Positions 4,269-39,302 of a stretch of 64,000 nucleotides of DNA are shown here, in pieces. The notes under the pieces are model-generated. The model was given only the letters and a program-made list of their open reading frames with translations. It did no database searches and was not told the origin of the DNA. The stretch's first letter is position 1; the number at the start of each line of letters is the position of its first letter. Where the stretch lies: NCBI RefSeq assembly GCF_056746865.1, contig NZ_CM163382.1. One strand, 5' to 3'. The position numbers were made by a program, and so were the translations under genes.

Positions 4269-4390
4269 GATTTCGTCCTTTTTAAGGGGGTTATTTACAC
4301 CTTAGCGCAAAGCGGACGTGGTTCCTACTGGAGTGCGCATAACGAACACAAGCACTTCCCGTGGATAAATTGAAAACGAAAGATCAAAAA

Positions 4391-4480
4391 AAAAGCCAGC
4401 ACCCGGCTGGCTAAGTAATACTGGAAGCAATGTGAGCAATGTCGTGCTTTCAGGTTCTCCGCGAGGGTCTTCCTGATCGC
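4391..4480 (-). ncRNA. ryhB: RyhB iron-responsive small RNA
   Basis: The reverse complement reads GCGATCAGGAAGACCCTCGCGGAGAACCTGAAAGCACGACATTGCTCACATTGCTTCCAGTATTACTTAGCCAGCCGGGTGCTGGCTTTT, which matches my memory of RyhB and ends in a GC hairpin plus U-run terminator. Track ORFs 4302..4487, 4325..4540 and 4450..4665 overlapping it are spurious. Confidence 0.9.
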
Positions 4481-5097: not shown

Positions 5098-5123
5098 GCC
5101 CTTTTTCTGAGATGGAAAAAGGG
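5098..5123 (+). terminator. Candidate hairpin terminator after yhhY
   Basis: GCCCTTTTTCTGAGATGGAAAAAGGG forms a perfect 8-bp stem (CCCTTTTT/AAAAAGGG). Confidence 0.35.
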
Positions 5124-5326
5124 TGTCATTCAAAATCGGCATACCTTCCTTTAAGGTATTTATTTTCCCAATAAATATATAAGATTTACCTCATAATTAC
5201 GTCCTAAAGTGTAATATTTTATTTTTTAATATATACGCCTACAATTTCCTGGAGTAAATAAATAACAATTAACAAGCATAATAGTGCCATTGATAAAATA
5301 GCATGCCATAAAAGGACTTTTCATGG

Positions 5327-6439
5327 ATGAGTAATATTGTTTACCTGACAGTAACGGGAGAACAACAAGGAAGCATCTCCGCAGGTTGTGGGACTTCTGA
5401 GTCTACAGGTAATCGCTGGCAGAGCGGGCATGAGGATGAAATATTTACATTCTCACTCTTAAATAGTATTACTAATACGGGGCTTGGTTCACAGTTCCAT
5501 GGTATAACATTTTGTAAATTAATTGATAAAAGCACTCCATTATTTATTAATTCCATTAACAATAATGAACAATTATTTATGGAATTTGACTTCTATCGAA
5601 TAAATAGATTTGGTAGATGGGAAAAGTATTATTATATACAACTAAGAGGCGCTTTTTTATCGGCTATTCATCATCAGATCATTGAAAATCAACTGGATAC
5701 AGAAACATTAACTGTTAGTTATGAATTTATCCTCTGTCAACATCTTATCGCAAATACCGAGTTCAGCTATTTGGCACTCCCTGAAAATTATAACTGTTTG
5801 TTTTTACCAAATTCAAAAAACCAAACAAATAATCGTTTCAAAACGTTAAACAGCAAAGCTATTGGCAGGCTACTTGCTGCTGGTGGCGTATACAATGGGA
5901 ACATTGAAGGATTCAGAGATACTGCGGAAAAACTGGGTGGAGATGCAATAAAAGGCTATGATCAAATACTAAATGAAAAAACAGCGGGCATAGCGATAGC
6001 AACAGCATCTATTCTTTTAACAAAGCGTTCTAATGTTGATACATATACAGAAATAAATAGTTACTTAGGCAAACTTAGAGGTCAACAAAAACTTCTTGAT
6101 GGTATAGACATAATAGAAATAATATACATTAAGAGACCTTCAAAAGACTTAGCTAACTTACGAAAGGAGTTTAATAAAACTGTAAGAAAAAATTTTCTTA
6201 TCAAACTTGCAAAAACCTCCGAAGCATCTGAAAGATTCAACGCCGAAGACCTTTTAAGAATGAGAAAGGGCAATGTTCCTCTAAATTATAATGTTCACCA
6301 TAAACTATCTCTAGATGATGGTGGTACTAATGATTTCGAAAATTTAGTATTAATCGAAAACGAACCATATCATAAAGTTTTTACTAACATGCAATCACGA
6401 ATAGCTAAGGGAGTATTAGTAGGTAGACTGGCCCCCTGA
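5327..6439 (+). CDS. yhhZ: Hcp-family (T6SS tube-like) protein fused to a C-terminal HNH nuclease domain; 3' end replaced by the IS2 insertion
   Basis: N-terminal Hcp-like region followed by an HNH motif (NYNVHHKLSLDDGGTNDFENLVLIENEPYHK). The reading frame runs into the IS2 left end at 6424 and terminates after 4 IS-encoded codons (RLAP). Confidence 0.8.
   Translation: MSNIVYLTVTGEQQGSISAGCGTSESTGNRWQSGHEDEIFTFSLLNSITNTGLGSQFHGITFCKLIDKSTPLFINSINNNEQLFMEFDFYRINRFGRWEKYYYIQLRGAFLSAIHHQIIENQLDTETLTVSYEFILCQHLIANTEFSYLALPENYNCLFLPNSKNQTNNRFKTLNSKAIGRLLAAGGVYNGNIEGFRDTAEKLGGDAIKGYDQILNEKTAGIAIATASILLTKRSNVDTYTEINSYLGKLRGQQKLLDGIDIIEIIYIKRPSKDLANLRKEFNKTVRKNFLIKLAKTSEASERFNAEDLLRMRKGNVPLNYNVHHKLSLDDGGTNDFENLVLIENEPYHKVFTNMQSRIAKGVLVGRLAP
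6419..6423. repeat. 5-bp target-site duplication (GTAGG), left copy
   Basis: GTAGG immediately precedes the IS2 left end and recurs at 7755..7759 immediately after the right end. Confidence 0.85.
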
Positions 6440-6514
6440 ATCTCCAGACAACCAATATCACTTAAATAAGTGATAGTCTTAATACTAGTTTTTAGACTAG
6501 TCATTGGAGAGCAG

Positions 6515-6880
6515 ATGATTGATGTCTTAGGACCGGAGAAACGCAGACGGCGTACTACACAGGAAAAGATCGCTATTGTTCAGCAGAGTTTTGAACCGGG
6601 AATGACGGTCTCCCTTGTTGCCCGGCAACACGGTGTGGCAGCCAGCCAGTTATTTCTCTGGCGCAAGCAATACCAGGAGGGAAGTCTTACTGCTGTGGCC
6701 GCAGGAGAGCAGGTCGTTCCTGCCTCTGAACTTGCTGCTGCCATGAAGCAGATTAAAGAACTCCAGCGCCTGCTCGGCAAAAAAACGATGGAAAATGAAC
6801 TCCTTAAAGAAGCCGTTGAATACGGGCGTGCAAAAAAGTGGATAGCGCACGCGCCCTTATTGCCCGGGGATGGGGAGTAA
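6515..6880 (+). CDS. insC: IS2 OrfA (InsC), HTH transposase subunit
   Basis: [53 protein letters not shown]..., 121 aa from the internal ATG of ORF 6470..6880. Confidence 0.9.
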
Positions 6881-7743
6881 GCTTAGTCAGCCGTTGTCTC
6901 CGGGTGTCGCGTGCGCAGTTGCACGTCATTCTCAGACGAACCGATGACTGGAAAGATGGTCGCCGCAGCCGTCACTCAGATGATACGGATGTGCTTCTCC
7001 GTATACACCATGTTATCGGAGAGCTGCCCACGTATGGTTATCGTCGGGTATGGGCGCTGCTTCGCAGACAGGCCGAACTTGATGGTATGCCTGCGATCAA
7101 TGCCAAACGTGTTTACCGGATCATGCGCCAGAATGCGCTGTTGCTTGAGCGAAAAACCGCTGTACCGCCATCGAAACGGGCACATACTGGCAAAGTGGCC
7201 GTGAAAGAAAGCAATCAACGATGGTGCTCTGACGGGTTCGAGTTCCGCTGTGATAACGGAGAAAAACTGCGAGTCACGTTCGCGCTGGACTGCTGTGACC
7301 GTGAGGCACTGCACTGGGCAGTCACTACGGGCGGCTTCGACAGTGAAACAGTACAGGACGTAATGCTGGGAGCGGTGGAACGCCGCTTCGGCAACGAGCT
7401 TCCGGCGTCTCCAGTAGAGTGGCTGACGGATAATGGTTCATGCTACCGGGCTAATGAAACACGGCAGTTTGCCCGGATGTTGGGGCTTGAACCGAAGAAC
7501 ACGGCGGTGCGGAGTCCGGAGAGTAACGGCATAGCAGAGAGCTTCGTGAAAACGATAAAGCGTGACTACATCAGTATCATGCCTAAACCAGACGGGTTAA
7601 CGGCAGCAAAGAACCTTGCAGAGGCGTTCGAGCATTATAACGAATGGCATCCGCATAGTGCACTGGGTTATCGCTCGCCACGGGAATATCTACGGCAGCG
7701 GGCCAGTAATGGGTTAAGTGATAACAGGTGTCTGGAAATATAG
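6838..7743 (+). CDS. insD: IS2 OrfB (InsD), DDE transposase catalytic subunit, expressed as an OrfAB fusion by -1 frameshift
   Basis: 301-aa ORF overlapping insC in the -1 frame, with an integrase-core-like sequence. Confidence 0.9.
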
Positions 7744-7754
7744 GGGCAAATCCA

Positions 7755-7759
7755 GTAGG
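7755..7759. repeat. 5-bp target-site duplication (GTAGG), right copy
   Basis: Identical to 6419..6423. Confidence 0.85.
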
Positions 7760-7841
7760 TGAAAGCAAAATCACTCCCTGGGCCATTCCATCTGGCTCAA
7801 TTTATCCTCCCATGAAAAATATTATGGAACCCACAAAATGA
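7755..7841 (+). pseudogene. yhhZ: Displaced 3' end of yhhZ (last ~26 codons, ESKITPWAIPSGSIYPPMKNIMEPTK)
   Basis: Joining 6423 to 7760 (removing IS2 and one duplication copy) restores a continuous frame that ends at the TGA at 7839..7841, giving a 392-aa product. Confidence 0.75.
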
Positions 7842-8332
7842 TGACTAAAACCCAAATAAATAAATTAAAAAAAATGATGAATGATTTAGACTATCCATTT
7901 GAAGCACCGCTCAAGGAATCATTTATTGAAAGTATAATCCAAATAGAATTTAATTCTAATTCAACTAATTGCCTGGAGAAATTATGTAATGAAGTTAGTA
8001 TTCTTTTTAATAATCAACCTGATTATCTTAATTTTTTAAGAGCAATGGATGGATTCGAAGTTAATGGATTACGATTATTTAGCCTCTCGATTCCAGAACC
8101 TTCAGTTAAAAACCTTTTTACCGTAAATGAATTTTATAGAAATAATGATGATTTCATAAACCCTGATCTACAAGAACGGTTAGTGATCGGGGATGATAGC
8201 ATTTCAATATTTACTTATGACATTAAAAGTAACTTTTTTGAAATTAGAGATAATATTGGCACCGAAAATATATTCAGTTCGTTTAGTGATTTCTCTTCAT
8301 TCTTAAACGAAATCATGGACAGTTGTTCATAA
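7838..8332 (+). CDS. yrhA: Putative immunity protein for the YhhZ nuclease (SUKH/Smi1-Knr4-like)
   Basis: 164-aa ORF whose ATG overlaps the reconstructed yhhZ stop (ATGA), indicating translational coupling; it carries an ...FLRAMDGFEVNGLRLFSL... motif reminiscent of SUKH immunity proteins. The name is assigned from position. Confidence 0.6.
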   Translation: MMTKTQINKLKKMMNDLDYPFEAPLKESFIESIIQIEFNSNSTNCLEKLCNEVSILFNNQPDYLNFLRAMDGFEVNGLRLFSLSIPEPSVKNLFTVNEFYRNNDDFINPDLQERLVIGDDSISIFTYDIKSNFFEIRDNIGTENIFSSFSDFSSFLNEIMDSCS

Positions 8333-8543
8333 TAATCAAAAGGTAACAAAAATCATTGTAAACCATGCCATCTTTTTAGAGATTACCAGCAGAAAATTCC
8401 TTGTTCGAAACTTAGCAATGCAAGCTATGGAAAAACTTACAACGGAACTACACTCCTTAAGTGAGATGGACCGAAGACATGTAATCTCTATTTTAGCCGA
8501 AATAGCTAATGGCTATGATGATTTTAGTGACATGTTGATTTAG
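8331..8543 (+). pseudogene. Start-less open frame / gene remnant (...LAMQAMEKLTTELHSLSEMDRRHVISILAEIANGYDDFSDMLI)
   Basis: About 70 sense codons are open with the first ATG only at 8418; the frame differs from yrhA and the region is AT-rich. Confidence 0.3.
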
Positions 8544-8566
8544 TTAGAACTTCACCCGAATCATAA

Positions 8567-8746
8567 GATTCTGATATCTTAAATAAGAAAATCCCGTTCG
8601 ACGTTCTGAAAAAGAAATCACAAAATATTAGCAGATACTTATTTCGTGACTGTATATTATCCGATGAACTTTTTTCAAAACCAGCATTTAATAATATATT
8701 TGACGAAGATGAACGCGTCTTTTCTCAAAGTATAACGCAAGAATAA
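8567..8746 (+). pseudogene. Start-less open frame / gene remnant (...FRDCILSDELFSKPAFNNIFDEDERVFSQSITQE)
   Basis: 59 open codons with no in-frame ATG, ending at the TAA at 8744..8746. Confidence 0.3.
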
Positions 8747-8781
8747 TAATATAACGATCAACAATAATATTTATTATAATT

Positions 8782-9066
8782 ATGATTACTTATCACGACG
8801 CATTCGCGAAAGCGAACCATTACCTTGATGATGCAGATCTCGCCGTCGTCATTACTCTACATGGACGCTTTAGCCAGGGCTGGTATTTCTGTTTCGAAGC
8901 ACGAGAATTTCTCGAAACTGGTGATGAGGCCGCGCGTTTATCCGGTAACGCACCTTTTATTATTGATAAAGACAGTGGTGAAATTCATTCCCTTGGAACG
9001 GCAAAGCCGCTGGAAGAATATCTACAGGATTATGAAATAAAAAAGGCTACCTTCGGCTTGCCCTGA
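8782..9066 (+). CDS. yrhB: Small YrhB-family protein
   Basis: 94-aa ORF (MITYHDAFAKANHYLDDADLAVVITLHGRFSQGWYFCFEAREF...) located upstream of ggt as in E. coli. Confidence 0.8.
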   Translation: MITYHDAFAKANHYLDDADLAVVITLHGRFSQGWYFCFEAREFLETGDEAARLSGNAPFIIDKDSGEIHSLGTAKPLEEYLQDYEIKKATFGLP

Positions 9067-38234: not shown

Positions 38235-39302
38235 GTGCCCAACATGTACGAACAGGATTCTCTTAGCGCACTGGATGCGATTACCGAAGCTCAACGCATT
38301 GCCTTTGCCCCTATGCTTTTTCAAACAGCACTCTGCCTACGTAATGCGGGTGTACTTTCATATCTGGATCGGCAAGGCAAACATGGCGCAACGCTGGCTG
38401 ATATCACCGAACATAGCCATATCAACGAATATGCGGCCAGCGTTCTGTTAGATATGGGCTTAAGCGGGCGAATTATTACCTGTAAAGAGGGAATGTATTA
38501 CCTGGCGAAAATCGGTCATTACCTCCTGCATGACACTATGACTCGCGTGAATATGGATTTCACCCAGGATGTCTGTTACCAGGGGCTCTTCTTCCTCGCC
38601 GATTCACTCAATGAAGGAAAACCGTCCGGGTTAAAAGTATTTGGCGACTGGTCGACGATATATCCGGCACTTTCACAATTACCAGACGCCGCTCGTGAAA
38701 GCTGGTTTGCGTTTGATCATTACTATTCAGATGGCGCATTTAACGCCGCACTGCCTTATGTATTCGCCAACAACCCCACAACATTGTACGATGTAGGCGG
38801 CAATACGGGTAAGTGGGCTTTGCGTTGCTGCAAATACAATGAAAACATAGCCGTGACGTTATTAGATCTGCCACAACAAATCGTACTAGCGAAAGAAAAT
38901 ATCGCGAATGCAGGTTTTTCTGATCGCATAGATTTCCATGCGGTGGATATGCTAAGCGATGCCCCATTACCGGGCGAGGCTGATATCTGGTGGATGAGCC
39001 AATTTTTAGACTGTTTTTCACCCGAACAAATAATTAGCATACTCAGCAAAATCGCCAGCGTAATGAAGCCTGGCGCAAAAGTTTGCATCATGGAGTTGTT
39101 CTGGGATGCGCAGCGGTTTGAAGCAGCATCATTTAGCCTGAACGCGTCCTCACTTTATTTTACCTGCATGGCAAACGGTAACAGCCGTTTCTATAGTGCA
39201 GAGAAATTTTACGACTATCTGAATAAAGCAGGATTCCAGGTAGCAGAGCGCCACGATAATTTAGGCGTTGGGCATACACTTTTGATATGCCAAAAGAAAT
39301 AA
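38235..39302 (+). CDS. Class I SAM-dependent methyltransferase (ApeB-like)
   Basis: 355-aa ORF with a glycine-rich SAM-binding motif (LYDVGGNTGKWA) and an acidic-loop motif (LLDLPQ). Confidence 0.75.
   Translation: MPNMYEQDSLSALDAITEAQRIAFAPMLFQTALCLRNAGVLSYLDRQGKHGATLADITEHSHINEYAASVLLDMGLSGRIITCKEGMYYLAKIGHYLLHDTMTRVNMDFTQDVCYQGLFFLADSLNEGKPSGLKVFGDWSTIYPALSQLPDAARESWFAFDHYYSDGAFNAALPYVFANNPTTLYDVGGNTGKWALRCCKYNENIAVTLLDLPQQIVLAKENIANAGFSDRIDFHAVDMLSDAPLPGEADIWWMSQFLDCFSPEQIISILSKIASVMKPGAKVCIMELFWDAQRFEAASFSLNASSLYFTCMANGNSRFYSAEKFYDYLNKAGFQVAERHDNLGVGHTLLICQKK

Follow-up and report, generated by a model that had tools for sequence, protein, structure and literature searches.

YhhZ of Escherichia coli has been termed an 'evolved Hcp', combining an Hcp domain with a degenerate HNH domain (PMC2907695). 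Hcp-ET1, an orphan E. coli Hcp-HNH-DNase (deoxyribonuclease), is reported to be delivered by T6SS2, a type VI secretion system (T6SS), with ETI1, encoded downstream, as its neutralising partner (PMC6730261, PMC6099711, bioRxiv 10.1101/2024.03.05.583533). In STEC004, O104:H4 C227-11 and 55989, the published Hcp-ET1 is full length and was reported to kill via T6SS2 (Ma et al. 2017, as reviewed in PMC6730261 and PMC6099711). The allele described here lies in a window of 64,000 nucleotides (the whole stretch of DNA analysed) from contig NZ_CM163382.1 and differs from the published effector in lacking the conserved C-terminal 26 residues, as a complete copy of the insertion sequence (IS) IS2 sits at codon 366/367 of yhhZ. 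E. coli proteins of the Hcp-HNH architecture are 96–100% identical to YhhZ as reconstructed without the element, and the equation of YhhZ/YrhA with Hcp-ET1/ETI1, drawn from reviews and a preprint, is probable. We interpret the locus as a recent, strain-specific transposition of IS2 into yhhZ, by which the toxin domain loses its last conserved element and expression of the adjacent yrhA would fall, in a course of IS-mediated decay of an AT-rich, H-NS-bound islet (probability roughly 0.8). The junction is the sole unrecorded part; IS2, YhhZ/Hcp-ET1 and YrhA/ETI1 are already known.

The locus in K-12 MG1655 (b3442–b3446) is the closest counterpart, with the same islet, the same gene pair and a co-oriented IS splitting one partner of the toxin–immunity pair. 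In K-12, yrhA is split by IS1E (768 bp) and yhhZ is intact, whereas here yhhZ is split by IS2 (1331 bp) and yrhA is intact. IS erosion of the yhhZ–yrhA module is not new in kind, and the event is probably ordinary strain-specific pseudogenisation. The features of the locus, in window coordinates, are as follows.

5100–8800, no strand: AT-rich yhhZ–yrhA–yrhD islet, cut by the 53%-GC IS2 block (composition profile)
5327–6439, plus strand: truncated yhhZ (tssD/Hcp-ET1-type) open reading frame (ORF), 370 aa (ORF translation)
6419–6423, no strand: GTAGG target-site duplication, left copy, 5 bp (read in the sequence)
6424–7754, plus strand: complete IS2 (IS3 family), 1331 bp (ends, ORF profiles, collinearity with K-12)
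6424–6465, plus strand: IS2 left inverted repeat, IRL (gapped alignment to the reverse complement of the right end)
6515–6880, plus strand: IS2 orfA (InsC/TnpA repressor), 121 aa (protein identical to K-12 InsC1)
6832–6838, plus strand: A6G slippery heptamer, predicted −1 frameshift to the OrfAB transposase (sequence)
6838–7743, plus strand: IS2 orfB frame (InsD/TnpB, DDE transposase part), 301 aa (10 aa differences from K-12 InsD1)
7713–7754, minus strand: IS2 right inverted repeat, IRR (gapped alignment)
7755–7759, no strand: GTAGG target-site duplication, right copy, 5 bp (read in the sequence)
7760–7841, plus strand: orphaned 3′ remnant of yhhZ, codons 367–392 and TGA, encoding ESKITPWAIPSGSIYPPMKNIMEPTK, in which the conserved strand and GxIYP motif lie (sequence, conservation, model)
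7838–8332, plus strand: yrhA, 164 aa, intact, predicted YrhA-family (SUKH/SMI1_KNR4-related) immunity gene (NF038335, linkage)

The segment between the two GTAGG copies (6424–7754) is exactly 1331 bp long and is collinear with K-12 MG1655 IS2A (1331 vs 1331 bp), with 56 substitutions, 0 indels and 95.8% identity; the window copy is a divergent isoform relative to IS2A. An ungapped comparison of the two ends was poor, but gapped alignment of 6424–6465 with the reverse complement of 7713–7754 revealed the expected imperfect IS2-type terminal inverted repeats (31 matches and one indel over ~42 bp). Both transposase genes are co-oriented with yhhZ and yrhA and match their NCBIfam models over the full length, orfA with NF006928 'IS2 repressor TnpA' (275.8 bits, cutoff 229) and orfB with NF006918 'IS2 transposase TnpB' (707.8 bits, cutoff 597). 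The two frames overlap in the −1 frame, with A6G (6832) in the start region of the orfB frame (6838). Length and collinearity, terminal repeats, the orfA/orfB frameshift arrangement and the 5-bp duplication are thus all those of IS2. An earlier note, made from the sequence alone, had claimed a complete IS2 with a 5-bp GTAGG duplication; the length, the repeats, both ORFs and the A6G site bear out the element, and GTAGG is present at 6419–6423 and 7755–7759 and as a single copy in the empty site of E. coli 118UI. The 64-kb window holds this one copy of IS2 only.

Removal in silico of IS2 and one GTAGG gives an ORF of 392 aa, the TGA of which (7839–7841) overlaps the ATG of the next gene (7838–7840). 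The same note had proposed this restored Hcp-HNH frame, with its stop overlapping the downstream start, and the sequence left after excision is indeed the 118UI allele. The reconstructed yhhZ–yrhA (1670 nt) is 100% identical to that of 118UI, a urine isolate from Mexico. The flanks show 0 mismatches over 6424 + 6579 nt with 118UI and over 6424 + 4964 nt with the duck isolate EC31, and on these identical flanks both strains carry the intact tssD product WP_000065916.1. As excision restores a natural allele exactly, chance is ruled out. The uninterrupted yhhZ–yrhA locus is found in 3767 of the 5426 complete E. coli genomes searched, the IS2 junction in 0 of 5426 (megablast with the whole feature and with the 240-nt left junction). 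Neither the truncated 370-aa product nor an equivalent truncated product built on the K-12-type allele has an exact-product match in the gene-position index, and a 32-nt junction 32-mer has no match in the metagenome contigs by exact scan. By every sequence criterion, the insertion is real, recent and private to the source strain. The insertion marks the lineage cleanly, in a strain that at this locus shows no other difference from genomes of the type of sequence type 69 (ST69), such as 118UI and EC31.

A perfect match to the IS2 copy (100%) occurs among complete genomes as a single copy, annotated as IS3-family, on the 233-kb plasmid NZ_CP102854.1 of a chicken isolate. Matches at 99.9% include many plasmid copies, many of them on large plasmids, and chromosomal copies, which hints at a plasmid-borne donor. 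The presence of an identical copy on a plasmid of another strain, and the lack of the junction in any other record, would also fit an assembly or editing artefact, with a repeat copy placed at the wrong position. We regard this as extremely improbable. Both junctions are base-exact, the element has its full 1331 bp, and excision recreates the natural allele without a mismatch; misassembly does not generate target-site duplications, and the exactness of the duplication leads us to reject it.

The truncated YhhZ consists of native residues 1–366 followed by RLAP from the left end of IS2, with the stop codon at 6437–6439, so the replacement of the last 26 residues, as claimed from the sequence, is correct. 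The N-terminal Hcp/TssD domain (residues 1–147) matches TIGR03344 Hcp1 with 118.3 bits (cutoff 58.9). Pfam PF05638 T6SS_HCP matches residues 27–139 (E = 3.8e-11), and the Hcp3 chain 3he1 of the PDB matches the reconstructed protein (E = 2.6e-12). The Pfam HNH match is weak for reconstructed YhhZ as a single sequence; in a set of 46 diverse toxin-family members, 46/46 have a PF01844 (HNH) match at E ≤ 0.1 and 23/46 have one at E ≤ 0.001. H324, H325, N335, N339 and H349 are invariant among YhhZ orthologues. An AlphaFold model of the whole protein, built on 13 orthologues, had a poor Hcp half (mean predicted local distance difference test, pLDDT, 52.5) and was superseded by an AlphaFold2 model of the toxin domain only, computed from the 46 diverse sequences (pLDDT 92.9, predicted template modelling score 0.86). 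The fold of this model matches the DNases of pyocin S2, pyocin AP41, ColE7 and ColE9 (Foldseek probability 0.97–1.00, 77–88 of 161 residues), and weak profile matches connect the YhhZ toxin domain with the same colicin and pyocin enzymes. The reconstructed locus has the Hcp domain, the HNH/His-Me toxin domain and the adjacent downstream immunity gene of the Hcp-ET class, with the toxin domain incomplete in the present allele (lacking 367–383).

The segment beyond the junction is part of this domain. Residues E367–P382 (ESKITPWAIPSGSIYP) are conserved in YhhZ orthologues down to 51% identity; K369, W373 and Y381 do not vary among these orthologues, and conservation is at least 90% for G366 and P376. 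In the 46 diverse domains (36–58% identity), conservation of at least 90% is seen for G366, G378, Y381 and P382. An exhaustive search with YhhZ residues 232–392 gave 581 cluster representatives at E ≤ 1e-3, 350 of them at E ≤ 1e-10. The best 150 of the 581 relatives are 136 to 1542 residues long; 143 of these 150 have alignments reaching residue 376 or further, and for 122 of the 143 the protein ends 0–3 residues past the end of the alignment, at approximately residue 381–385. The possibility that intact homologues naturally end at the junction is contradicted by these figures, since most of the best relatives end near residue 383. In the model, residues 368–376 form a β-strand (pLDDT 96–97), followed by the G-x-[IV]-Y-P end at 378–382; the last approximately nine residues of YhhZ are of low confidence and form an E. 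coli-specific tail. The conserved toxin domain accounts for 16–17 of the 26 lost residues. The HNH toxin domain of the YhhZ type reaches to approximately residue 383 and ends in a conserved strand and GxIYP, which are absent from colicin DNases. The earlier placing of the insertion 'just after the HNH core' holds for the catalytic residues and fails for the end of the domain.

Comparison with the relatives shows that the insertion removes what is, in alignment and model, the last conserved structural element of the toxin domain. Conservation of residues 367–383 extends over hundreds of related toxin domains, and the C-terminal tail is unlikely to be dispensable. Four IS-encoded residues take the place of strand 368–376, the GxIYP end and the disordered E. 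coli-specific tail. The truncated domain would be predicted to misfold or to lose activity, such that the toxin is likely inactivated or strongly reduced and yhhZ is probably now a pseudogene. We suggest that the locus be annotated as a yhhZ::IS2 pseudogene and that the 370-aa ORF be left out of any count of functional T6SS effectors.

Two observations on the domain weigh against this interpretation. The catalytic positions 324, 325, 335/339 and 349 and the helix 345–360 are all retained upstream of the junction. The last histidine of colicin and pyocin DNases lies a few residues from their end, and the ββα-metal core can work without such a strand in other families. The colicin E7/E9 and pyocin S2/AP41 DNases have the His-Me finger (HNH) core and the preceding helices in common with the YhhZ toxin domain, but the YhhZ-type domain has in addition an N-terminal three-stranded sheet and the C-terminal GxIYP strand, and the colicin DNases have neither; the C-terminal strand would therefore belong to a family-specific subdomain. 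Their immunity proteins also differ, being of the Im type for the colicin DNases and of the SUKH/YrhA type for YhhZ.

With the catalytic residues and the helix 345–360 retained, and with colicin-type DNases aligning to the core only and lacking the extra strand, the truncated Hcp-HNH protein might still be an active, deliverable DNase, in which case the effect of IS2 would be mainly regulatory: the immunity gene would be uncoupled and its expression lowered, or else raised by IS2-derived transcription, with altered self or kin protection. We consider this unlikely, although the proposed read-through of the co-oriented IS1 in K-12 (PMC12428005) makes read-through into IS2 and yrhA plausible. 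Virtually all members of the toxin family, whatever their architecture, conserve the lost segment, which speaks for a need for it; the model gives the strand very high confidence, selection would act against an active toxin with weakened immunity, and the scan finds no outward promoter-like site at the right end of IS2. It is more doubtful still that the truncated protein keeps its nuclease activity and has lost a strand that contributes to immunity binding or to packing in the Hcp tube, with IS2 also altering yrhA expression. If so, the product would be a mis-regulated, partly immunity-escaping self-toxin causing DNA damage or stress, or the strain would be sensitive to kin firing the intact effector; the locus would then be a natural experiment on the breakdown of a toxin–immunity module.

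The product of yrhA, which the earlier note had put forward as the putative immunity gene, matches NCBIfam NF038335 'YrhA family' with 127.9 bits (cutoff 55). E. coli YrhA has no Pfam match at E ≤ 0.001, and so no direct match to SMI1_KNR4/SUKH. Two loci with other carriers of the toxin domain strengthen the assignment. In a phage-like contig (L003, 2501–6751), a 1261-aa protein of the MuF_C type (phage head morphogenesis) carries the YhhZ-type toxin domain at its C-terminus, and the 150-aa gene directly downstream matches the YrhA-family model with 156.8 bits. In a second locus (L004), the same toxin domain is the C-terminal part of a 579-aa PT-TG protein followed by a 140-aa gene (142.3 bits with the YrhA-family model). 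Both downstream genes carry Pfam SMI1_KNR4/SUKH matches (weak for the 140-aa gene) and align to YrhA (E = 1e-8 for the 150-aa and E = 2e-11 for the 140-aa product). Since these homologues are of the YrhA family and carry the SMI1_KNR4 match, YrhA is linked to SMI1_KNR4 indirectly. YrhA-family genes accompany the YhhZ-type toxin consistently, whether its carrier is Hcp, MuF or PT-TG. As the linkage to the toxin is conserved across these unrelated delivery modules, the assignment of YrhA as the cognate SUKH-type immunity protein of the YhhZ toxin is well supported. From its sequence, L003 is a phage-borne polymorphic toxin with the same toxin–immunity pair; holin and endolysin genes adjoin its MuF_C toxin and YrhA-family gene.

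The insertion places 1.3 kb of IS DNA between toxin and immunity gene, as the same note had stated (IS2 at 6424–7754, yrhA from 7838). The ATGA overlap of the intact allele implies that yhhZ and yrhA would be translationally coupled. This coupling would be lost, with translation of yhhZ now ending at 6437–6439. Transcripts from the yhhZ promoters would have to cross 1.3 kb of IS2, of which only orfA would be efficiently translated, leaving ~860 nt exposed to Rho. With the coupling gone and 1.3 kb of IS2 RNA upstream, for the most part untranslated and sensitive to Rho, yrhA expression would be predicted to fall. Classical IS2 insertions include both the polarity in the gal operon and the hybrid promoter created by IS2 at ampC. 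Like those mutations, the present one has a 5-bp duplication, interrupts an operon and may affect downstream expression, but no hybrid promoter is evident in the promoter scan. A consensus scan of the plus strand found no promoter-like site between 7500 and 7838 and none facing out of the right end of IS2. The region has 12 promoter-like sites against a shuffle expectation of 11.5, and as this is the shuffle level the scan lends no support to IS2-driven expression of yrhA. The sole terminator-like hairpin (7779–7799) lies inside the native yhhZ coding sequence; as it is coding and present also in intact alleles, it was discounted as a functional terminator. A fall in yrhA expression is weakened as a prediction by two points: weak promoters in AT-rich DNA may escape a consensus scan, and the case for polarity on yrhA draws on what is generally known of IS2 and Rho. 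For K-12, read-through of the co-oriented IS1E from the yhhZ promoters has been proposed at this locus (PMC12428005), which makes some read-through into IS2 and yrhA plausible here. Overall, yrhA expression is probably reduced, not necessarily abolished.

The islet in which both insertions lie has 29–35% GC compared to 53% for the 64-kb window (GC of yhhZ 0.341, yrhA 0.281 and IS2 0.529). In K-12, yhhZ and yrhA are among the 'promoter islands', in a section on H-NS complex formation (PMC3661553). The present allele adds one more case of IS elements eroding this AT-rich toxin–immunity islet, beside yrhA::IS1 of K-12. The separate insertions in K-12 and here, together with the fully intact yrhA, might be taken to mean that the insertion was selected, a costly or self-harming effector being lost and immunity being kept in an 'immunity-only' defensive genotype. 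Retained orphan immunity genes are a known T6SS theme and would favour such a view. However, the allele occurs in no other genome or contig searched and so gives no indication of having spread or recurred, expression of yrhA is probably lost and not kept, and neutral IS activity predicts a lone insertion of this kind in non-essential, AT-rich DNA. We therefore judge selection for loss of the effector to be very unlikely and retain the reading of a recent transposition that probably ended toxin function as ordinary decay.

Some YhhZ proteins in the databases deviate in other ways. P0001, P0004 and P0005 are rare in-frame YhhZ–YrhA fusions of 552–556 aa (392 + 164 = 556), in clusters of 1–2 members. 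P0001 reads ...NIMEPHKMMTKTQ..., which fits a one-base change near the CCCACAAAATGATG overlap; these fusions could be sequencing errors or genuine. Cluster P0007 (317 aa, 631 member sequences) comprises 'partial' YhhZ proteins, with a representative that is 100% identical to the window allele and ends at residue 317. These may be contig-end fragments of draft assemblies, which would fit repeats or IS elements breaking assemblies at the locus.

Downstream of yrhA, the 41-aa ORF at 8418–8543 (plus strand) corresponds to yrhD. The sequences of 118UI and EC31 are identical there, and their annotation makes it a pseudogene that is incomplete ('missing C-terminus'); the K-12 yrhD coding sequence is intact. 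Upstream of the islet, the small RNA RyhB (Rfam RF00057, 83.1 bits, 4387–4451, minus strand) is located between yhhX and yhhY as in K-12, and no other Rfam match in the 64-kb window exceeds the gathering score. At its far end the window has 100% identity with EC31 and with ST69-type genomes. Positions 39001–64000 are annotated in matching genomes with an MMPL transporter, a family-2 glycosyltransferase, an AMP-binding protein, an FGGY kinase, nikA and others. At least 80% of this part is covered in 513 of the 5426 complete E. coli genomes, and by this distribution it is a lineage-restricted accessory region.

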